Shown here: piece after piece, positions 6,053-44,203 of the stretch
How the letters are laid out: every line of letters starts with the position of its first letter
How positions within the stretch are numbered: position 1 is the stretch's first letter
NCBI GenBank assembly: GCA_037132255.1
Contig: JBAXPN010000002.1
Coordinates: forward strand, 12,433-76,432
DNA: 64,000 nt
Reading direction: 5' to 3'
Origin: Candidatus Falkowbacteria bacterium
GTDB lineage: Bacteria > Patescibacteriota > Patescibacteriia > Patescibacteriales > UBA12465
Translations under genes and position numbers: made by a program
Notes under the pieces: model-generated
What the model was told of the DNA's origin: nothing
What the model saw: the letters and a program-made list of their open reading frames with translations, nothing else
Databases searched by the model: none

Positions 6053-6212
6053 CGTTTGGATATTAAGTGTTGGGTTTATATATTTTTAAAAAAACAATTT
6101 CAAAATACTTTATCATAAGCTTTTTAATCCTTCAATAGCTCTTGATTTTAATTTTTTGCAAATCTGTATATAACAAAAAACACCATTTTATTGGTGTTCT
6201 TTGTTTCGTGGG

Positions 6213-6284
6213 AGCGGGTAAGGGGAATTGAACCCCTCTCTCGACCTTGGCAAGGTCGCATAATAGCCACTATACGATACCCGC
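6213..6284 (-). tRNA. tRNA-Gly (anticodon GCC)
   Basis: Hand-folded cloverleaf. Acceptor GCGGGTA/TACCCGC, anticodon arm CGACC-TTGCCAA-GGTCG, T arm AGGGG-TTCAATT-CCCCT. Confidence 0.85.
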
Positions 6285-6306
6285 ATATCGTTTATTCTAT
6301 TCTAAG

Positions 6307-6390
6307 TGCCGCGGGCGGGAATCGAACCCGCACTGTATCGCTACAACTGGATTTTAAGTCCAGCGCGTCTACCAGTTCCGCCACCGCGGC
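6307..6390 (-). tRNA. tRNA-Leu (anticodon TAA), class II with long variable arm
   Basis: Acceptor GCCGCGG/CCGCGGC, anticodon arm CTGGA-CTTAAAA-TCCAG, long variable arm, T arm GCGGG-TTCGATT-CCCGC. CCA is not encoded. Confidence 0.85.
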
Positions 6391-6394
6391 AATG

Positions 6395-6780
6395 TGGAGA
6401 TGATGGGAGTTGAACCCATGTCCAATCGGTTTTCCTAAATACATTTACAAAAATAGATCGATTTAATTTTTTTAACCTCAATCATCAAAAATCGAACAAA
6501 AGCGACTGAGGCGATTCTGATTTTGTTTCGATATTATCCGTCAGAAGCAGACAACATCTATCTTCATGATTATTACACCGGATGACCGCTATGGAGACTC
6601 ACAGCCCGCCGATGGTTACAGCCTTATTAATTAGGCCATAACTGGAGCATAGCTTGGAGTTAACCAAGTGAATGCTCTTGCCGTTTTGGCATTTATGTTT
6701 TTTTAGTCAGTTTAACGCGAGTAGCTAAGCGCGTTTTGAATATTTAGAAAAAGCTCCGACTGTCGATTCCTTTCATCCCC
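6395..6780 (-). ncRNA. ssrA: tmRNA (ssrA), predicted tag AKTARAFTWLTPSYAPVMA
   Basis: The 5' end GGGGATG pairs with the 3' end CATCTCC, including the G3:U70 alanine identity pair. T arm is ATGGG-TTCAACT-CCCAT. An internal ORF GCC AAA ACG ... ATG GCC TAA at 6690..6631 follows an A-rich stretch and ends TAA TTA ATA A. The gene lies directly downstream of smpB. Confidence 0.85.
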
Positions 6781-35933: not shown

Positions 35934-36635
35934 TCAGATTTTGTCTTCAGCAAATGTTTTTAGTTTAAGAACTGCATCTCTCACTTCTTTTTTTACTAAA
36001 TCAATATTAGTTTCATCGCTGAAAATTATCGGTTTGCCAATATAAAGTTCACCTTTATGGCCACCGTAAATTTTAGAAAAATTGAAACCAGATTCGATTG
36101 GCATTATCACTTGAATGTTGTGCAGATAAATAGGAACAACGTATTTCGGACGAACTGTCGTTATTGTTTTGGCAACGCCATATTTACAATCACCGATTAT
36201 CCCATTACGCGTTCTTGTCCCCTGGAAAAATAGCACTAAATTGCTGTTTTTCTTTTTTAATATATCACAAAAATTTGCAATGTCTTTTTCAACAACTTCC
36301 ATTTTCTTAGTATTCCGATGAGCTGGTACACACTTTGTCAGAAACATCACTTGTTCACCAAAGGGATGTTCATAAAAATTATGGTAATCCGGCGCATTGT
36401 ATGGAACACGATCATAACGAAAGAATATATCGAAGAGCGACGACACGCTAATCCCGATCAAGAGCGAATCAATAATGGTTTCATGGTTGGAGACATATAA
36501 AATCCCATTCTCCTTGGGTAAGTTTTTTCTGCCGCGAACTTTAACGCGGTTTCCGATTCGAAAGATATAGATCGCAACCAAGGCTAATAGTAGTAGCCAA
36601 ATGCGCCCAACGCTTTCTCCAATGAGTTTTTTCAT
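35934..36635 (-). CDS. plsC: 1-acyl-sn-glycerol-3-phosphate acyltransferase family protein
   Basis: NHETIIDS (HX4D motif) and FFQGTRTRNG (FPEGTR-like motif), with an N-terminal TM. Confidence 0.8.
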   Translation of the reverse strand: MKKLIGESVGRIWLLLLALVAIYIFRIGNRVKVRGRKNLPKENGILYVSNHETIIDSLLIGISVSSLFDIFFRYDRVPYNAPDYHNFYEHPFGEQVMFLTKCVPAHRNTKKMEVVEKDIANFCDILKKKNSNLVLFFQGTRTRNGIIGDCKYGVAKTITTVRPKYVVPIYLHNIQVIMPIESGFNFSKIYGGHKGELYIGKPIIFSDETNIDLVKKEVRDAVLKLKTFAEDKI

Positions 36636-36703
36636 GTTTTGGCTTGTTTTTAAGGTTCTTCAAGTATTATAGCACTGGCTAGAAAAACAGGAAGAGAATT
36701 AAA

Positions 36704-36979
36704 TTAGATATTTTTCGACATGTAAATTGCAGTATGGTTATGCTTTTTTTCAGTTTTATATATCTTAAAACCAAATCGTTTATAATAATCCTCTAATCCC
36801 TTTTCCTTAGCTGATTTACTTTCTCTAAATTTGTAGTCAATGCTCAAATTTAAAGAATCGGCTAATCGTAGCATTTCTTTCTCTTGTGAATCTAGAGAAA
36901 GAATTTGCCGACTGCTGTCTTCGGTAGACTTTCGGCAGTAGAGGGCATATTTAATTGTTTGTTCATTTTTGTCGTTCAT
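36704..36979 (-). CDS. junction chimera: serine recombinase N-terminal catalytic fragment (aa 1-58) fused in frame to a GNAT acetyltransferase C-terminus (aa 59-91)
   Basis: KYALYCRKSTEDSSRQILSLDSQEKEMLRLA is the resolvase-domain start with the catalytic Ser. After ...SKSAK it continues EKGLEDYYKRFGFKIYK, which is GNAT motif B. Confidence 0.8.
   Translation of the reverse strand: MNDKNEQTIKYALYCRKSTEDSSRQILSLDSQEKEMLRLADSLNLSIDYKFRESKSAKEKGLEDYYKRFGFKIYKTEKKHNHTAIYMSKNI
36806..36811. repeat. att core copy (CTTAGC), left junction
   Basis: Codons GCT AAG (Ala57-Lys58) of ORF 36704..36979, identical to the hexamer at 42053-42058. Confidence 0.65.
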
Positions 36980-37004
36980 ATAATTATTATTTAATAATCA
37001 AAAA

Positions 37005-37072
37005 GGGCAGTCCTGATTCACCCAGCAAATAAACCAACCCAAAGGCTAATTTATCGTTTGGCAGAACTACCC
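37005..37072 (-). other. strand-specific imperfect palindrome between rep and the recombinase start (candidate single-strand origin or structured leader)
   Basis: Minus strand GGGTAGTTCTG (37072-37062) pairs with CAGGACTGCCC (37015-37005) over 11 bp. The two non-Watson-Crick positions are G-T on the minus strand but C-A on the plus strand. Confidence 0.35.
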
Positions 37073-37084
37073 ATTTCGAGCGAC

Positions 37085-37110
37085 AAAAGGTATTTTGTTA
37101 AAAAAATACC
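37085..37110 (-). terminator. intrinsic terminator after rep
   Basis: Minus strand: GGTATTT-TTTTAACAA-AATACC followed by TTTT. Confidence 0.5.
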
Positions 37111-37164
37111 TAAGGGTAATTGGTTTTTTGCTAGGTCAATACTGTTAATATATCAAAGAACAAG

Positions 37165-38112
37165 CTAAAAATCAATATTGTCTAAAGAATGGCCAGTTAG
37201 TATCTCGGCGATGTTCTCGTCCAGCTCTGGAAAATTAGACAGGTCATATTGCTGATAATTAAACCAGCGCATAAAATTTACTGGTTTGCCGATAGTGTCA
37301 TTAATATCGCTCTGGTTATATTCTGTTTCGCCGTCATACTTATAAACTAAAGATTCCGAGGGCAGTTTTGATTCCACGAGCGCCACGACTTCAACAAAAG
37401 AATTTTCTTGCGGTTTGAGCAGTCCTTTACTAGCGATGTATTTCTTTTGCCGAGGGCAGTTATTCTCAAAGACAGATTTTTGAATGTATTTTATAAAATA
37501 GAAAATAATCTTTTGCAGTTGCGCCTGGTTTTTTATTTTAGTAAAATTTCGGTCTTTTCCGCCGACCATTATTCTCCCTTGTCCCCAAATATCAAACATC
37601 TTTTTATAAATGTTTTTGATATAGGGCAGATTGAAGAAAATCATATGATAGTGAATCGCTCCTCGTTTTTGCAGTTCAAATACCGCTAGATATTTTAAGT
37701 TGCTTTGTTTTAAGTCTTTGCCCTCAATGCCATTGGTTTCATAATTGAGCCGTCTGATAAATTTGGTAAATTCATAGTTGGCTTTTTTAAGGTCTGTAAT
37801 ATTTTCGGCAAATGTTAGAGTTAGGGTAATCGGCAAATATGGTTTACCCTTTTCTTTAAACCATAAAAAACAATTAGCCATAATCAGCCGCTTAATCATT
37901 CTCTTGGCACGCCGAGCGGAGGACTTCAATATTTCTTCCTGGCTAGCCTTAGGCTTGGGGAATTTTTTAGCCTCTTCAATTTCTTCCTCGGTTTTGATAT
38001 GTCTGATTCTTCGCTCCAAATGAATATCCCGACCAAACTGATATATTTCCAAGAGCGACCCAGATTTTACCAGTTTACGATTGGATAAGTATTTATTATC
38101 TTGTTGTTTCAT
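37165..38112 (-). CDS. rep: rolling-circle replication initiator, HUH superfamily, two-tyrosine type (phiX174 gpA / Microviridae VP4-like motifs)
   Basis: Motif I is ITLTLTF, motif II is GAIHYHMIFF (HUH), and motif III is YFIKYIQK (Y-x-x-K-Y-x-x-K, cf. YVAKYVNK of phiX gpA). Confidence 0.75.
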   Translation of the reverse strand: MKQQDNKYLSNRKLVKSGSLLEIYQFGRDIHLERRIRHIKTEEEIEEAKKFPKPKASQEEILKSSARRAKRMIKRLIMANCFLWFKEKGKPYLPITLTLTFAENITDLKKANYEFTKFIRRLNYETNGIEGKDLKQSNLKYLAVFELQKRGAIHYHMIFFNLPYIKNIYKKMFDIWGQGRIMVGGKDRNFTKIKNQAQLQKIIFYFIKYIQKSVFENNCPRQKKYIASKGLLKPQENSFVEVVALVESKLPSESLVYKYDGETEYNQSDINDTIGKPVNFMRWFNYQQYDLSNFPELDENIAEILTGHSLDNIDF

Positions 38113-38131
38113 ATGTTTATTATTAATCTAG

Positions 38132-38143
38132 TTCTAATTAGAA
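38132..38143. promoter_or_regulatory. perfect 12-bp palindrome TTCTAATTAGAA upstream of rep
   Basis: Self-complementary 12-mer 20 nt upstream of the rep ATG (38112), overlapped by the direct repeat AGTTCT...AGTTCT. Confidence 0.4.
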
Positions 38144-38163
38144 GTTCTCTTAACAAGGATAAC

Positions 38164-38209
38164 TTTTTCTTTTCGGCTCCCCCTACGGGGGAACCGCCGA
38201 AAAGAAAAA
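38164..38209. repeat. 46-nt nested hairpin (candidate rolling-circle double-strand origin)
   Basis: Outer 14-bp stem TTTTTCTTTTCGGC / GCCGAAAAGAAAAA enclosing an inner hairpin TCCCCC-TAC-GGGGGA. Confidence 0.5.
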
Positions 38210-38214
38210 AAGAG

Positions 38215-38358
38215 TTATTCCTTATTAAAGAGAGAGTTATATAAATTAACTAAAGAGGTAAGAAAAGAATCAGCCTCATCGGGAGTTATTGCTCGCCCAT
38301 ACAATCCGCTAAAATATTCTTGGGCGTCGGATATCAGTTGGTCGTCATATTTAGTCAT
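38215..38358 (-). CDS. small hypothetical protein (47 aa) of the element
   Basis: Hand-translated as MTKYDDQLISDAQEYFSGLYGRAITPDEADSFLTSLVNLYNSLFNKE. It is below the ORF-track size cutoff and sits between a terminator and the origin-like hairpin. Confidence 0.3.
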   Translation of the reverse strand: MTKYDDQLISDAQEYFSGLYGRAITPDEADSFLTSLVNLYNSLFNKE

Positions 38359-38375
38359 GATTTCAGCATAACAAA

Positions 38376-38407
38376 AGAGCCTTGCGTAAAATTGCCCGCA
38401 AGGCTCT
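38376..38407 (-). terminator. intrinsic terminator of the 38427..39377 gene
   Basis: 11-bp stem AGAGCCTTGCG / CGCAAGGCTCT followed on the minus strand by TTTGTT. Confidence 0.6.
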
Positions 38408-38426
38408 TATAGATGTTTAGTTGTTT

Positions 38427-39377
38427 TTACAGGTATTTTGGATTAATCTTGCACCAACCTAATTGCTCCGTTGAGTTTAAAATAAAGTCGTTTATTTTAG
38501 TTTTATCATTTATTTTTGTATTTAAGTCTTCGCAAGCATGCCTGAATTTATTCCATCCCTTAATATTATCGTAATCCTCTTTAAGGAAATCCTCGGATAT
38601 TTCCGAGAAGTCGGCTGGTTCTGAAATATCGTCTTTAGAAAAAATACACTCTAAAATATAATGATCAGTTGGCCTACGTTTTTGTCTGGCAATTTTTATC
38701 TCTTGACCTCGGATATATAAGAGACTATTTTCAGAATCAAAGCTAATTGGCGATATCGGTTTATTGCCCTTTAAAAATTCTTTGGTGTCTAGTTCGCTAA
38801 AAATATAGGAGCTAACAACGGCTAAGCAGTTAAGACCATAAGCAGGGAGAACTAAAGAAAGAGATTTTTCTTCATTTTTATCTTTATATTTAAAAGGTAA
38901 TGAGGTTGTGGATATTTCTTTTATAACCTGGGCAATTTCTTTAGATTTATCAGGGTTATTTTTTAATTCTTCTTTAGCCTTGCTAACCGCCTCATGAATC
39001 ATGGCAAGATAGCCAAGGCTAACTGGCATTTGTAATTCTATAGGGCTAAAAGGCTGAGAATCTTTAATAACAGCGGAAGCAATATTATGTTCTTTAGCAA
39101 AAATATCTTTATCCGACCAGGTGTCGGGATTTTCTGGGTCAATGGGGGTTTTATTATCCAAACGAGCATCAAATTCTTCGTCAGTTATTTTAAGAAGAAT
39201 ATCCTTTTGACTTTCAAAATAGGCAAATTGGTCTTTCATTATTACCTTAACAGTTGAGTCATTTTTGATAAATTCAACAAATTCATAAATAACCAGGCTA
39301 CCATTAAAAGTGCCTAGTTTTTCTTGGTATTCTGCGATAAACGATTCTAGTTTATTTTTGATTTTATCGGGAGTCAT
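38427..39377 (-). CDS. hypothetical protein of the element (possible C-terminal winged-helix)
   Basis: 316-aa ORF. The C-terminal ...WNKFRHACEDLNTKINDKTKINDFILNSTEQLGWCKINPKY loosely resembles the recognition helix plus wing of wHTH regulators. The assignment is weak. Confidence 0.45.
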   Translation of the reverse strand: MTPDKIKNKLESFIAEYQEKLGTFNGSLVIYEFVEFIKNDSTVKVIMKDQFAYFESQKDILLKITDEEFDARLDNKTPIDPENPDTWSDKDIFAKEHNIASAVIKDSQPFSPIELQMPVSLGYLAMIHEAVSKAKEELKNNPDKSKEIAQVIKEISTTSLPFKYKDKNEEKSLSLVLPAYGLNCLAVVSSYIFSELDTKEFLKGNKPISPISFDSENSLLYIRGQEIKIARQKRRPTDHYILECIFSKDDISEPADFSEISEDFLKEDYDNIKGWNKFRHACEDLNTKINDKTKINDFILNSTEQLGWCKINPKYL

Positions 39378-39425
39378 AGGTCTATTTTGGCATAATTTAT
39401 GGTTGATGGCAATTTAACAAAGATA

Positions 39426-39454
39426 TTGACAAATTTTACTGTAAATAGAATAAT
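39426..39454 (+). promoter_or_regulatory. sigma70-like promoter TTGACA-N17-AATAAT
   Basis: TTGACA at 39426-39431 and AATAAT at 39449-39454, in the divergent intergenic region of the element. Confidence 0.4.
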
Positions 39455-39489
39455 ATAGATAGATTTATAAAAATTAATACTATTAATTT

Positions 39490-40698
39490 ATGGGAATCAA
39501 TTCATGGCCAATGCCAACAAACGGCGATAGCGATAATTTAGAAAATAAAGAGAAAGATTTGCCAAAACCAGGAGAAAAAATTATAGAAAAAAATGACGAG
39601 ATATTTAAATTAGAAAAAGCTAAGGGCTCTGGTGCGGGAGTTTTTACTAAGCTTTATGGGGAACAATTGGAAAATATTAAAGAAGATTTAAAAATGCATA
39701 ATGGCTATGTCGATTCTAAGTTCAGTGATTCATATAAAAATAAAGAATTAGGTATTGAAGTGGGGACTTATGATAAGGATTGGTGGGCAGGAAACCCACA
39801 CGCAGAAATGTTGTATCTTAATGGGGTATTTGTGATTAGAGATAAGGAACAAACATATAGCGCTGGTCCAGAATTTAAGTGGAAAGGCGGAGGAGGGGTT
39901 AAACATGAAAATCATATTTCTTCCATAGAAAGCGTAAAAATTGAAAATAATAGAATTCTTGCTGATATAAAATTTTGGGATGGAAGTATTAGAACGGAGG
40001 ATATAGGCGCTTATGAGCTTCCTCCGGTTTATACTGTATATAGGAATAATAAAACATACGATAACGCTAATTTACTAAAAATTGTTAAATCTTTAACTGG
40101 AGAGCATAAAATAGTAACCGATATTGAAAAAGGAATTTTTAATCAGGGTACAAGTATTGAGGACAATGACTATATAAAATCTATTCCTGAAAACGCCATT
40201 GTTATTACGGACACGGCAGCCTTAAAATCTCTGCCGGAGCTGGAACAGAAAAAAGTTATCAAAATAGAGGATTTTTTAGAAGGAAATTATGGTAGTTTGG
40301 GGTACTATGCAAACAAAATTGATAGTTACCCCTATCAGATAATAATATATAAGCCTGGGTGTGCAGACCACGTTATTCCTGAAGCACGTGAAGAAGGAAT
40401 AGAAAATTATGATGAAGATAAATATGCAGAATACTTAAAAAAACAATTAGTAGCAGCTTATCCAGGCAGAGTTTCATTAGATATCGTGGTAACTAGAGAC
40501 CCAAAAGATTTGAAAAAGTCACGTTTTAGAGTTATTGACAGGCATAGTTTAAGCGCTAAGCCGTCGGAGTATCTTGCTGGTAGCGATTTAATCCTTCCCC
40601 CAAGTGAAAATGAGAGTAAAGGCAATCAATCTTTGGATAAAAAAATAAACAATTTTTTAAAAAATGAAATAACCAAGATTGAAAAGGCAAAAGAATAG
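39490..40698 (+). CDS. hypothetical protein of the element
   Basis: 402-aa ORF with no recognised family. It is the only plus-strand gene in the element. Confidence 0.5.
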   Translation: MGINSWPMPTNGDSDNLENKEKDLPKPGEKIIEKNDEIFKLEKAKGSGAGVFTKLYGEQLENIKEDLKMHNGYVDSKFSDSYKNKELGIEVGTYDKDWWAGNPHAEMLYLNGVFVIRDKEQTYSAGPEFKWKGGGGVKHENHISSIESVKIENNRILADIKFWDGSIRTEDIGAYELPPVYTVYRNNKTYDNANLLKIVKSLTGEHKIVTDIEKGIFNQGTSIEDNDYIKSIPENAIVITDTAALKSLPELEQKKVIKIEDFLEGNYGSLGYYANKIDSYPYQIIIYKPGCADHVIPEAREEGIENYDEDKYAEYLKKQLVAAYPGRVSLDIVVTRDPKDLKKSRFRVIDRHSLSAKPSEYLAGSDLILPPSENESKGNQSLDKKINNFLKNEITKIEKAKE

Positions 40699-40705
40699 AT
40701 AGTAA

Positions 40706-42412
40706 TCACAGCAATTTCATTCCAAGTGCGTCCCACCCTCTCCGCACTGAGTTAAAATCGCTTTTATTTTCAATTTTAGAGAGGACATTATATGGCTCTT
40801 TGAAAGAAATATTAGCGATTTTTTTGTTATCAATAGTAGCGTTCCAAAGTACGTCAATTAGAGTATTTCGTTGTTCGTCAGGTTTTTGAGATAAAAACTC
40901 TTTTTGCATTGTTTTAGGCTCTAAAAACGCATTTCTTATCCGTTCCAAAGTAATATTATCTTGGCTAGATTTTTTGATTTCTAACTCTTGTAAGTCCTTA
41001 TTAATCAAAACGATTTCATTTTCTATTATCTGATTCTTAGCCTTATAGTCGCCCTCTAAAACAACTTTATCCAAGTAGCCGTCTATCAGAACTTTCTTGC
41101 GCTCTTCAAGCGTTTTGAGCCTATTTTGAAGACCGAGGATAGCCTCTTCTAGGTATGACAAGACATTTCCGCTTTCTCTTTGCTTAGCCCGATAAACGAG
41201 ATTAACGACTTTCTCGTCAAAGATTAAATTATCAAAAACTCCGTTCAATTCCGTTGATAGATTTTCCTCTTTGATATAGGCCTTATGCTCCTCGCAGACA
41301 TTCTTGCCATTCGTACAGTAGTAATATGTTAGCCGTCCCTTTTTCTTCGTGGCTGTTAGCAGACAGCCACACTTGGCACATCTTAACATACCCCTGAAAG
41401 CGAAAGGAATATTTTGTTTTTTGATATGGGATTTTTTAGTTAGCATTTCTTGTACCTCGTCAAATAACTTCTTAGAAATTAACGGCTCATGATTACCCTG
41501 ATAAATATTTCCGCTTTTTTCCATTATTCCGCAATAAAAAGACTCCGATAGCATTTTATGAATTTTGCTTTTGTGATATTTATTATGCGCCCGACTTCTA
41601 AACCCCTCTTTGAATAGTATATCGGCTATTTCCTTAACGCTATATTTCCCAGTCTTATACATTTCAAATATTTTAATGATATATTTTCCTCTCGCCTTAT
41701 CAATTATTATTTTACTATCTTTGTTCAAATATCCTAGAGGGGCTAAGTTAGGCCAACCGCCTTTTTCTAGTTTTGCTCTGATTCCTCGTTTTACATTTTT
41801 ACTCAAGTCCAAAATATACTGATTAGCCATTCCGCTTTCCACATTAAACAAGAGAGCATTATCGCCTGGCAAATATTGCCGTTCCATTGTTTGAATAATT
41901 TTTAATTCATTCTGTTGCAATAGCCATTGAATAGTTGCCGAGTCTATCGGGTTGCGACTTAATCTATCAATCTTCCAACAGATAACGCCCTGAATTTTAC
42001 CTCGCTTGATCAAATTGATAAGTTCGGAAAATTGCGGACGATTATCCGGCTTCTTAGCGCAATCGAGAAATATTTTTTTACTTCCCTTTTTTATTGCCGC
42101 CCCTTCAACAGCTTTAATCAGCAAAGTTCCGGCACCAAGGCTTCGGTATGTTTTTAGAACGGCTAATTTAAAAAAATATAGATTATTATTTTCATCAAAG
42201 AAATAGCGGACTGCTCCAATTATTTTACCATTCACCAAACAAACTAAAACAAAAAACTCCTTTTTTTGAAATTGCTCGTTAAGTTCTTTTGGCTCATGAG
42301 GTTTTGTTATAAGCGTAGCGTTTTTATTTAAAGCCCTATAGGCCCATTTCGTTATGGCCGTAATTCGAGAAAGTTCGCTAAATTTTGCTTTTCTAATTAT
42401 TATTCTGTTCAT
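40706..42412 (-). CDS. junction chimera: GNAT acetyltransferase N-terminus (120 aa) fused in frame to the body of a large serine recombinase (448 aa)
   Basis: MNRIIIRKAKF...LAVLKTYRSLGAGTLLIKAVEGAAIKKGSKKIFLDCAK (GNAT motif A) is followed by KPDNRPQFSELINLIKRGKIQGVICWKIDRLSRN (resolvase-domain end). Next come the recombinase domain, a zinc ribbon (CAKCGCLLTATKKKGRLTYYYCTNGKNVCEEH) and a coiled coil. The track ORF extends to a TTG at 42505, but the Met at 42412 fits the GNAT start. Confidence 0.8.
   Translation of the reverse strand: MNRIIIRKAKFSELSRITAITKWAYRALNKNATLITKPHEPKELNEQFQKKEFFVLVCLVNGKIIGAVRYFFDENNNLYFFKLAVLKTYRSLGAGTLLIKAVEGAAIKKGSKKIFLDCAKKPDNRPQFSELINLIKRGKIQGVICWKIDRLSRNPIDSATIQWLLQQNELKIIQTMERQYLPGDNALLFNVESGMANQYILDLSKNVKRGIRAKLEKGGWPNLAPLGYLNKDSKIIIDKARGKYIIKIFEMYKTGKYSVKEIADILFKEGFRSRAHNKYHKSKIHKMLSESFYCGIMEKSGNIYQGNHEPLISKKLFDEVQEMLTKKSHIKKQNIPFAFRGMLRCAKCGCLLTATKKKGRLTYYYCTNGKNVCEEHKAYIKEENLSTELNGVFDNLIFDEKVVNLVYRAKQRESGNVLSYLEEAILGLQNRLKTLEERKKVLIDGYLDKVVLEGDYKAKNQIIENEIVLINKDLQELEIKKSSQDNITLERIRNAFLEPKTMQKEFLSQKPDEQRNTLIDVLWNATIDNKKIANISFKEPYNVLSKIENKSDFNSVRRGWDALGMKLL
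42053..42058. repeat. att core copy (CTTAGC), right junction
   Basis: Codons GCT AAG (Ala150-Lys151 of the track ORF), exactly where the sequence switches from GNAT-like to recombinase-like. Confidence 0.65.
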
Positions 42413-42523
42413 ATATTTAAATAATAGCATATTCTTTCTGGCTCTTGCCAAAATCACTAGTTTTGCTAAGATTATCCGTTGCCAAAGGTCCTTTAAAAAT
42501 AACAATAAAAACAGATAAAAACC

Positions 42524-44203
42524 ATGAAAACAGACACGGAATTTGATAACCTGGCTAATCAGGTTGGGTACGGCCTCGCCGTTGTTCTCTTTGAAAAAAG
42601 ACTAACGGATAAATTCTTCTCCTCGCTTAACACAGGCGAGATTATTTCTATTGCCAGGCACGTACTCAATAACAAGCGCTTAATTAAATTACTAGGCCAA
42701 AGAGTTGCCCGTGTTGATTGGGAAATCAGAAACTTAGTTGAAACTTACAACAATTCAAAAACACCAACATTTCTCAAAGAGCAAATCTTTTCAAAAATTG
42801 AAAAGCTTACGCTCTCTTCTCGGGTCTGGCTAGATATTCAATCCTTGTCTAACAGCGCACTATTATCTGATATGGCGTGCAAAAAAGCATTAGCTTCAAT
42901 TGTAAGTTTCGAAGAAGGCCAGGCGGTATTTACTAAGGCTGCCGAACGGCACACCAGAAAAACAGATGAGATACTCGAAATGTTAACTCACCTGGCAACG
43001 ACTTATGATGACTGGGCTTGGATTATTGCAAGAGAAGTAAGCAGCGCATCTCTTCTTGAGAAATGTTTTAGCGCAGTTAATAATCTAACATTGAGTTACC
43101 AGGAATGGTGCGAAAAAGAAACTCATCTTCGCGGGGGAAGCAAAGTATGGCGCAGGTGGTATATACTTGTCACTAAAAAAAGAAGTGAGGCCGCCCTGAC
43201 TTTTAATGATTACAAAAACGAGCTTGATATTGTGTCTAGTGACTTCGGCCTCCCTGAAAAGCAAAAGGAGGCACAACTAGAGATTCGTAAACTTCTAAAA
43301 AAAGTAAAATTATTAGCAAGGTCTTTCAGCGATTGGTACGACCTATATTATTATGCGGATGAACAAGATAGACCGTCTCTAAAAAGAGCCTGTCTTTCTA
43401 AGTTGCGTCTTCTCGCTGTTGAAGCCGAAGACTATTATTTGCTCTATATAATACTGGGGAAAAGAAACAAGGCGGAAAAAGAGTCTTATCTAACAAAAAT
43501 AAGGTCTTTCAACCCTGACCACAACTTTTGGATTTACACTTATAAGCCAAAATGGTGTGACAAAAATTACCTCGATGTTGCTGAAAAATGTCTCGCCGCT
43601 TGTTCGGCTGATTCAGAGGCCTGGTTAAAAATCTTTCGGGAATCCGGTAATGACGAACCAATTAGAAAAATTGCCCTACAAAAACTTTCCAAGTCTCAAA
43701 ATACTGGAGACTATTGGTGCGGGATACACATTGTTTCTCGCAACTCGAAGGAATTAAGAAGTGTTTGTGAAAATAATCTTTTGGCGCTGAGCGCTCCCTG
43801 TTCCGAATGGAAAGATATCATGAATAAGTATAGCAGCACCGACAGATATGATCTTAGCAATATAATCTACAAAAAACTTGTTGAATCGGCTAAAACTTTT
43901 GACGACTGGCTCTATATACTTGAATCGCCCAAATCTCCTAATGCTAATACGGACAATAAAAAAGCGATTGTCCAATTAGGAGTTCTCGCTTCTTCGCTCA
44001 ATGAATACATAAATGTTTGTCTTTTGTCTGAGACTGGCTCTTCAGAATATAAAACGGCACGTAACAACATCTCATTACTCCGTTTGGATTTTAAGGAATG
44101 GCTACATGTATACAACACGGCTTCTAACGACTCAAAAAATCGTTGTGATAGGTCGGGTGGCAATCCATTAGCCGAACTAGCTCTGGCAAAGATGGCTCCA
44201 TAA
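42524..44203 (+). CDS. tandem-repeat protein, about 15 copies of a ~32-aa Trp/Tyr-anchored helical repeat
   Basis: The motif [LA]-x-[ST]-[FY]-x-[DE]-W-x-x-[IL]-[YF] recurs with the aromatic residue at aa 66, 102, 164, 195, 230, 271, 304, 336, 367, 398, 429, 462, 495 and 526. Examples are TYDDWAWI, SYQEWCEK, SFSDWYDLY, SEAWLKIF, CSEWKDIM, TFDDWLYIL and DFKEWLHVY. Confidence 0.6.
   Translation: MKTDTEFDNLANQVGYGLAVVLFEKRLTDKFFSSLNTGEIISIARHVLNNKRLIKLLGQRVARVDWEIRNLVETYNNSKTPTFLKEQIFSKIEKLTLSSRVWLDIQSLSNSALLSDMACKKALASIVSFEEGQAVFTKAAERHTRKTDEILEMLTHLATTYDDWAWIIAREVSSASLLEKCFSAVNNLTLSYQEWCEKETHLRGGSKVWRRWYILVTKKRSEAALTFNDYKNELDIVSSDFGLPEKQKEAQLEIRKLLKKVKLLARSFSDWYDLYYYADEQDRPSLKRACLSKLRLLAVEAEDYYLLYIILGKRNKAEKESYLTKIRSFNPDHNFWIYTYKPKWCDKNYLDVAEKCLAACSADSEAWLKIFRESGNDEPIRKIALQKLSKSQNTGDYWCGIHIVSRNSKELRSVCENNLLALSAPCSEWKDIMNKYSSTDRYDLSNIIYKKLVESAKTFDDWLYILESPKSPNANTDNKKAIVQLGVLASSLNEYINVCLLSETGSSEYKTARNNISLLRLDFKEWLHVYNTASNDSKNRCDRSGGNPLAELALAKMAP

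Follow-up and report, generated by a model that had tools for sequence, protein, structure and literature searches.

Recombinases whose own gene becomes disrupted upon integration are said to occur only in archaea (review PMC8371274). In the elements SSV1, pTN3 and pT26-2, integration leaves the recombinase gene in two pieces, with an N-terminal and a C-terminal fragment at the two element ends; the SSV1-type fragments are presumably inactive, such that excision would need an intact copy provided in trans (PMC8371274). Here, we study a stretch of 64,000 nt from Candidatus Falkowbacteria bacterium (contig JBAXPN010000002.1, called the window in the following), in which a small plasmid-like element interrupts a gene of the GNAT acetyltransferase family and in which the gene of the element's large serine recombinase (LSR) is likewise split between the element ends in the integrated state. 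The likeness to the SSV1-type systems extends to a tRNA-like attachment (att) site within the recombinase open reading frame (ORF), which is here the canonical attP, 13 codons before the stop codon. On the other hand, the SSV1-type enzymes are archaeal tyrosine recombinases (Phage_integr_3, PF16795), while the window encodes a bacterial LSR for which only serine-recombinase domains were found. Furthermore, their split occurs regularly at each integration, while here it is seen in one of ~58 copies, and use of the regular attP costs the recombinase no more than its last ~9 residues. The window element is a mis-integrated copy from an LSR plasmid family that looks new but is ordinary in mechanism.

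LSRs recombine attP with attB, whereby only the central dinucleotide has to match, and phiC31 integrase can also use genomic pseudo-sites. The LSR of the window shares the architecture of the phage-type enzymes phiC31, Bxb1, TP901-1, A118 and SPbeta SprA, i.e., Resolvase, Recombinase and Zn-ribbon domains. Protein-coding genes are the predominant targets of characterised serine integrases, whereas the window family targets the 3' ends of tRNA-Ser genes of four isoacceptors with an attP that overlaps its own stop region. Such targeting of four tRNA-Ser isoacceptors plus a tRNA-like unit (named 'X' below) appears unusual for integrases of the phiC31, Bxb1, TP901-1 and A118 type. The documented pseudo-site events of phage-type LSRs involve one canonical partner, while neither partner is canonical in the window. 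LSR elements that split a host ORF are known from skin/SpoIVCA in sigK of B. subtilis and from the A118-like prophage in comK of Listeria, where precise excision would restore the gene. In these cases, as here, an LSR-bearing element resides inside a host ORF; there, however, the recombinase stays intact and excision is programmed, whereas here the crossover that splits the host gene also breaks the recombinase, and the target is not shared by relatives. Finally, the element resembles pC194/pUB110 plasmids and phages with a G2P/ORF2-type replication protein (Rep) in that an HUH Rep is encoded on a replicon of ~5 kb, but the window family adds an LSR with a dedicated attP and is found mostly integrated in Patescibacteria chromosomes. 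A description of the element family, or of a natural self-partition of a serine integrase gene, was not found in the literature searches made.

The recombinase gene of the window is split after residue 58 by the insertion of the element into the GNAT gene. The features of the insertion are as follows.

36806..42052, minus strand: inserted integrative rolling-circle plasmid-like element of 5,247 bp, bounded by GCTAAG copies of which one is counted as element; delimited via the related contig L021
36704..36979, minus strand: junction ORF J2, a chimera of 91 amino acids (aa) with LSR residues 1-58 followed by GNAT residues 121-153; identical to protein P0148
40706..42412, minus strand: junction ORF J1, a 568-aa chimera (from ATG) with GNAT residues 1-120 followed by LSR residues 59-506; identical to protein P0005
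36806..36811, minus strand: crossover hexamer GCTAAG at junction J2, from sequence and empty-site alignment
42053..42058, minus strand: crossover hexamer GCTAAG at junction J1, from sequence and empty-site alignment
36704..36805, minus strand: 3' part of the host GNAT gene, residues 121-153, from the intact homologue P0121 and position weight matrix (PWM) ranks
42053..42412, minus strand: 5' part of the host GNAT gene, residues 1-120, from in-silico rejoining and the intact homologue

The J2 ORF begins with MNDKNEQTIKYALYCRKSTEDSSRQILSLDSQ..., i.e., a serine-recombinase start with its nucleophile motif (the Ser within YCRKST), and continues beyond residue 58 as ...EKGLEDYYKRFGFKIY..., which is the GNAT C-terminus. 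Correspondingly, the J1 ORF, which has a TTG further upstream at 42505, proceeds beyond residue 120 with KPDNRPQFSELINLIKRGKIQGVICWKIDRLSRN..., the remainder of the recombinase. Its protein P0005 is annotated by NCBI as a GNAT family protein from a Candidatus Falkowbacteria metagenome-assembled genome (MAG). When the segment 36806..42052 is circularised in silico, a 506-aa LSR is restored that matches Pfam's Resolvase (PF00239) unbroken at positions 2-145/145 (E = 7e-23), Recombinase (PF07508, E = 2e-15) and Zn_ribbon_recom (PF13408, E = 4e-7). The J2 chimera alone matches positions 2-47 of the Resolvase profile only. Both catalytic motifs, YCRKST and DRLSRN, are readable in the LSR and are found on separate fragments in the window. 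The rejoined GNAT protein comprises 153 aa and spans positions 14-116/116 of the Acetyltransf_1 profile. Intact LSR relatives were found at 90-97% identity. Among solved structures, those closest to the LSR are two catalytic domains, from a conjugative-transposon recombinase (3g13) and from TP901-1 integrase. In the LSR family, a coiled-coil insertion of the zinc-ribbon domain controls directionality; in the window LSR, residues ~340-470 show a heptad-like abundance of Leu/Glu/Lys, judged by eye only. A previous reading of the window from its letters alone (the sequence-only reading) had given coordinates and a description of these chimeras that turn out to be exact to the base; its claim that the catalytic-Ser fragment is parted from the DNA-binding body, with each piece fused in frame to GNAT, is borne out by the ORFs and their rejoining.

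The uninterrupted target is available for comparison. P0121 is an uninterrupted 153-aa GNAT homologue with 99% aa identity, encoded on the metagenome contig L021. This contig aligns to window positions 43036-42053 and 36811-36648, and the sole overlap of the two alignments is GCTAAG. That is, L021 represents the empty site and the insertion is a clean one of 5,247 bp. The gene adjoining GNAT is likewise conserved on L021. Junction J2 is crossed by a further contig, L022 (810 bp, from a different assembly), which encodes the 91-aa chimera P0148 and matches window positions 37018 to 36516 without a difference, i.e., across J2 into host DNA. Over its full length (1-810 vs. window 37323-36516), L022 is mosaic, with ~10% divergence upstream of 37018, where it covers the Rep 3' end and intergenic DNA. 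The mosaic stems either from recombination of the integrated copy with another element variant or from a crossing of the assembly graph between co-occurring variants. We rejected GCTAAG as a target-site duplication, given that its Ala-Lys codons belong to the intact recombinase (all relatives) as well as to the intact GNAT.

To place the split within its family, we compared the element with 76 related loci, of which 74 stem from scans of genome and metagenome collections, complemented by L001 and L002. The C-termini of the related recombinases diverge past ...NKSDFxSVRRG and often continue with RDSNPG...WHLS, which is a tRNA gene read in antisense. Accordingly placed, complete antisense tRNA-Ser genes were found by ARAGORN in 37 loci (anticodons gga, gct, cga and tga), with their 3' end overlapping the recombinase 3' end and host genes beyond the tRNA at this side. 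Since ARAGORN still calls complete tRNAs at the occupied sites, the tRNA gene is restored upon integration and the family counts as tRNA-targeting; the window copy, sitting in a GNAT gene, falls outside this pattern. A common core, GCGGAGAGG, is the antisense of the tRNA-Ser acceptor 3' strand. It is also seen at 16 left ends, where it follows the host flank (in most cases a terminator hairpin) and precedes gtgggacgcacttggaacgg (gtgggacg...). The predicted attR is hence composed of recombinase 3' arm, core and tRNA, and the predicted attL of flank, core and P' arm. As predicted from these ends, the canonical attP consists of the recombinase 3' arm followed by GCGGAGAGG and gtgggacgcacttggaa and overlaps the final 13 codons of the LSR gene, while the family's putative attB is the 3' end of tRNA-Ser (any of the four isoacceptors) or a tRNA-Ser-like 'X' unit.

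The ends of one copy (L029) have only GCGG in common, and the family-wide homology stops directly after ...TCAGTGCGG, which together place the canonical crossover inside GCGG. Therein, GG would be the central dinucleotide, as it is the sole non-palindromic choice. The dyad symmetry of attP variants shows several centres tied at 9-11 of 22 and does not fix the crossover centre. Regular integration spares the recombinase except for its final ~9 residues. It swaps the tail WDALGMKLL for ~26 residues that are antisense of tRNA-Ser (window 40706-40770, minus strand, compared with L002 2224-2314 and 36 other loci).

Further structures accompany the regular sites. The X unit, which does not occur in the window, is a conserved structured segment of ~165 nt plus terminator hairpin between two GCGGAGAGG cores (L001 2662-2869; L013 731-935 and 1627-1836; L020 9504-9712; L011 1354-1541; L015 11470-11567). 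Its start resembles the T-arm side of tRNA-Ser (gagggatttccgcc), and two hairpins show compensatory changes between copies. In at least 7 loci, the recombinase 3' end is fused to an X unit, which thus appears as an alternative attB. Neither a tRNA call by ARAGORN nor an Rfam match was obtained for the unit; it might serve as a landing pad or a decoy, or be an RNA gene derived from tRNA-Ser. We also observed arrays of two to three attL-type sites (terminator flank, GCGGAGAGG and gtgggacg...) that are spaced by 0.6-1.6 kb upstream of one element (L008 3490, 4255 and 4885; L012 4349 and 5937; L018 145 and 754; L013 936 and 1837), which suggests either that several integrations took place in series and then decayed, or that short satellite units share the recombinase. 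Isolated remnants of the recombinase 3' end (query residues 318-505) are found in contig interiors (L020/L073 10001-10261, L074 8001-8347, L068 1307-1852, L076 248-511) and adjoin tRNA-Ser in 3/5 loci (L020/L073, L074). These are decayed copies whose recombinase gene is preserved in its att-proximal part only.

The window itself still carries the regular site in unrecombined form.

40715..40770, minus strand: unused canonical attP, composed of recombinase 3' arm, core GCGGAGAGG (40745..40737) and P' arm gtgggacgcacttggaatg (40736..40718)

Positions 40759..40706 (minus strand) read ...gattttaactcagtGCGGAGAGGgtgggacgcacttggaatgaaattgctgTGA, i.e., an unrecombined attP. Its part 40745..40718 equals the GCGGAGAGG+gtgggacgcacttggaa sequence of the relatives' left ends, here still joined to the LSR 3' end, and its recombinase 3' arm plus core matches the tRNA-Ser-fused right ends of relatives. 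No other such site occurs in the window, and within the element it is the top PWM match. The sequence-only reading had proposed an SSV1-like att site within residues 50-65, a proposal that, by its own terms, an alternative attP would speak against. Such an attP is now found intact at 40745..40718, targeting tRNA-Ser and overlapping the last 13 recombinase codons.

The comparison with relatives speaks against the proposal as well. The N-terminal third of the recombinase is covered by 57 related loci, none of which is split at residues 57-59, i.e., the split at residue 58 is confined to one of the ~58 copies examined. The other internal truncations of the recombinase, which break at residues 242-418, are 3' remnants, several of them adjoining tRNA-Ser. 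P0005 is the only one of the 120 best protein clusters in which the N-terminus is missing at the residue-58 point. Two further candidates with lower coverage were rejected, given that P0078 begins at a downstream Met (~residue 27) and P0029 ends at a contig edge. On the DNA level, the third positions of codons 54-63 vary freely among 42 unique sequences. Most relatives read GCCAAGAAACCAG, i.e., GCC AAG AAA CCA vs. GCT AAG AAG CCG in the window, and thus lack the hexamer. The lack of synonymous-site conservation at codons 54-63 implies that no conserved DNA element is located there.

We then assessed how well both junction sites match canonical att sites. The register was fixed by laying the junction hexamer on the first six bases of the canonical core. 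An attB PWM was built from the canonical attR sites and both strands of the element-free window (58.7 kb, 117,458 positions) were scanned. The hexamer GCTAAG equals the canonical core at positions 1-2 and 5-6, with TA vs. GG at positions 3-4. The GNAT pseudo-attB is GCTAAG|GAAAAGGGATT compared to the canonical GCGGAG|AGGCAGGGATT; that is, the first 19 nt of the GNAT 3' part, GAAAAGGGATTAGAGGATT, form the pseudo-attB right arm and resemble the T-arm side of tRNA-Ser. When the host site GCTAAGGAAAAGGGATT is compared with tRNA-Ser GCGGAGAGGCAGGGATT, 11/17 positions match, with 7/7 in AGGGATT. With 9.5 bits, the GNAT site ranks 6th of 117,458 on the attB PWM, 3rd with a 20-nt model, and between 2nd and 6th with a PWM of 19 unique sites. 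All matches above it are true tRNA or transfer-messenger RNA (tmRNA) 3' ends. Given its right arm alone, i.e., with the hexamer excluded, it still ranks 10-58 of ~117,000 (p = 1e-4 to 5e-4). As an internal control, the top attB-model matches are the 3' ends of the tmRNA, tRNA-Leu(taa) and tRNA-Gly(gcc) that follow each other at window 6211-6780 (minus strand). With a 13-nt core model, the site inside the recombinase gene (codons 57-58, GCTAAG|AAGCCGG) ranks 4th of 10,494 positions, and with a P'-arm model 40th to 62nd. It agrees with the canonical core at 9/13 positions, compared to 7/13 without the synonymous variants of the window lineage (hand count).

Given these observations, we favour a rare off-target LSR reaction between two pseudo-sites, for which we estimate a probability of about 0.55. 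In the regular reaction, the LSR would recombine the attP at the 3' end of its gene with the 3' end of tRNA-Ser, crossing over inside GCGG. In the window copy, the canonical attP would have been bypassed, and the LSR itself would have catalysed a single crossover between the weak pseudo-site in its gene (codons 57-58) and the GNAT pseudo-attB with its tRNA-Ser T-arm-like right arm. Hexamer positions 3-4 (TA) may have served as the crossover dinucleotide, which has to be identical in both partners. Such a crossover would have split both genes and parted the nucleophile Ser (residues 1-58) from the DRLSRN motif and the DNA-binding domains. The outcome would be an immobilised, recently formed fossil and not a designed self-partitioning system.

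Several observations weigh against an LSR-catalysed event. The left arm of the GNAT site contributes nothing to its score, and the attB resemblance was first spotted by eye; with ~8 registers/references tried, the corrected p is ~1e-3. For the recombinase-internal site, the left arm is dissimilar, and the right arm does not reach significance outside the hexamer (p = 0.06-0.08). As the element-side site is a poor attP, the reaction would have used two non-canonical partners with a perfect attP 1.3 kb off. Finally, serine recombinases require an identity of just 2 bp, whereas the 6 bp shared here are a typical length for microhomology-mediated joining. In the main rival explanation, a circular rolling-circle plasmid would have been joined to the chromosome at the 6-bp microhomology GCTAAG by LSR-independent illegitimate recombination, i.e., its replication intermediates would have undergone template switching or error-prone end joining, with the likeness of GNAT and tRNA-Ser being coincidental. 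Plasmids of the pC194/pUB110 type, which replicate by a rolling circle, readily undergo illegitimate recombination. The HUH rolling-circle Rep encoded by the element fits this explanation, as do the identity shared by both partners, the un-attP-like surroundings of the element-side hexamer and the unused canonical attP. It leaves unexplained, however, that in the junction register the host site is the best non-tRNA attB match in 58.7 kb, that its right arm scores as it does (p 1e-4 to 5e-4) with the hexamer excluded, and that the hexamer equals the canonical core at 4/6 positions exactly at the canonical crossover. We regard joining at microhomology as possible but doubtful. Two other routes were rejected. 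A reaction of the canonical attP with the GNAT pseudo-attB followed by rearrangement is unparsimonious, since a single crossover at the internal site suffices to give the observed order. Integration by Rep or of the Xer type is not in line with junctions that show neither nick-site nor dif-like features and with an element without tyrosine recombinase.

A programmed partition would assume a functional attP inside the LSR ORF at codons 57-58, such that the gene is split at every integration and the chimeras are maybe selected. The split is indeed real and clean, both fusions are in frame and all element ORFs are intact. But in-frame fusion is expected by chance at ~1/6, an intact canonical attP is still present in the window, and P0005 stays alone among the 120 best clusters. 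Moreover, 0/57 loci are split there while 37 are integrated at tRNA-Ser via the recombinase 3' end, and neither the synonymous sites of codons 54-63 nor the hexamer are constrained. We consider such a design very improbable. Even less probable is an assembly artefact, i.e., a mis-join of a free plasmid and a chromosome with intact GNAT within the MAG. The source is a short-read metagenome assembly, and several element variants coexist in such samples (see the mosaic L022). But reciprocal junctions with just 6 bp in common are not producible by k-mer overlap, both junctions are interior to a contig of 157,665 bp, and J2 is seen again on a contig of another assembly.

The genes of the Ser fragment and of the recombinase body are 5.2 kb apart and presumably under different promoters. 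A scan for sigma-70 promoters and terminators in 36500-42700 gave 30 promoter-like sites vs. 22.6 expected and is uninformative on the expression of the chimeras. No second recombinase copy is present within the window, and the element is therefore very probably locked in, i.e., unable to excise, in agreement with what the sequence-only reading had considered possible. A related LSR acting in trans would likely meet poor substrates, as the junctions are hybrids of pseudo-sites. The GNAT gene is presumably inactivated. All element ORFs are still open, which argues for a recent event. The same reading had suggested that the in-frame fusions are selected, which we do not find supported. Both fusions being in frame is a single condition (orientation and codon phase) with a chance of ~1/6 that needs no special explanation. 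Furthermore, the GNAT half in J1 is without the C-terminal strands and neither recombinase fragment has a complete catalytic domain.

Two speculative variants are, even when taken jointly, improbable. In one, the internal site would be a secondary attP, with which the lineage would lock in at tRNA-like pseudo-sites if a tRNA-Ser attB is unavailable; if true, this would be the first bacterial serine-recombinase counterpart of the archaeal suicidal integrases. In the milder and more likely variant, the regular tail swap would act as an integration-state switch, i.e., the antisense-tRNA tail would be a built-in reporter of the integration state that tunes directionality.

Beside the LSR gene, the element comprises four ORFs.

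37165..38112, minus strand: rolling-circle Rep of 315 aa, HUH-type with motif HYHMIF (PF23343 REP_ORF2-G2P, E = 6e-17; PHROG 3419 (phrog_3419), E = 2e-25)
38215..38358, minus strand: p47, a small conserved ORF, from comparison with related loci
38427..39377, minus strand: p316, a conserved ORF, from comparison with related loci
39490..40698, plus strand: p402, a variable cargo ORF, from comparison with related loci

No Pfam or PHROG matches were obtained for p47, p316 and p402. Rep adjoins the recombinase in 53/76 related loci. p47 is found in 36/76 loci, with 91-100% aa identity among the matches listed (25/36), while homologues of the neighbouring p316 (37/76 loci) drop to 30-65% identity. 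The strong constraint on p47 stands out next to p316, and p47 is a candidate regulator or recombination directionality factor. A homologue of p402 is absent from all 76 loci, which marks it as variable cargo. The related loci are nearly all from Patescibacteria. The window element thus belongs to a family of small integrative rolling-circle plasmids that is widespread in Patescibacteria and is characterised by the module p316-p47-Rep-LSR. Circular free-form contigs were not detected by exact terminal overlap among 78 loci; we infer a free plasmid form because of the attP-form loci and the Rep gene. Rfam scans of the element and the related loci, including the X unit, gave only chance-level microRNA or small RNA matches. 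Six loci with a Patescibacteria-type element (L003, L006, L008, L016, L017, L019) come from third-party annotation bins titled 'uncultured Gammaproteobacteria bacterium', which is probably a labelling or binning problem and not host range.

The locus appears to be a natural record of a serine integrase that destroyed its own gene via wrong sites, where the part of the target that mattered seems to have been the T-arm-like arm. This bears on the off-target behaviour of LSRs in genome engineering. It also cautions that a single split recombinase is not readable as a programmed SSV-like strategy without a comparative survey. The statement that self-disrupting recombinases are confined to archaea (PMC8371274) is not overturned; still, the self-disrupted state can arise accidentally in bacteria, and the regular attP of the family does overlap the recombinase ORF. 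The comparison also defines a family of compact LSRs (~500 aa) whose attP and attB are readable and which is abundant in Patescibacteria, for which few mobile elements have been described.

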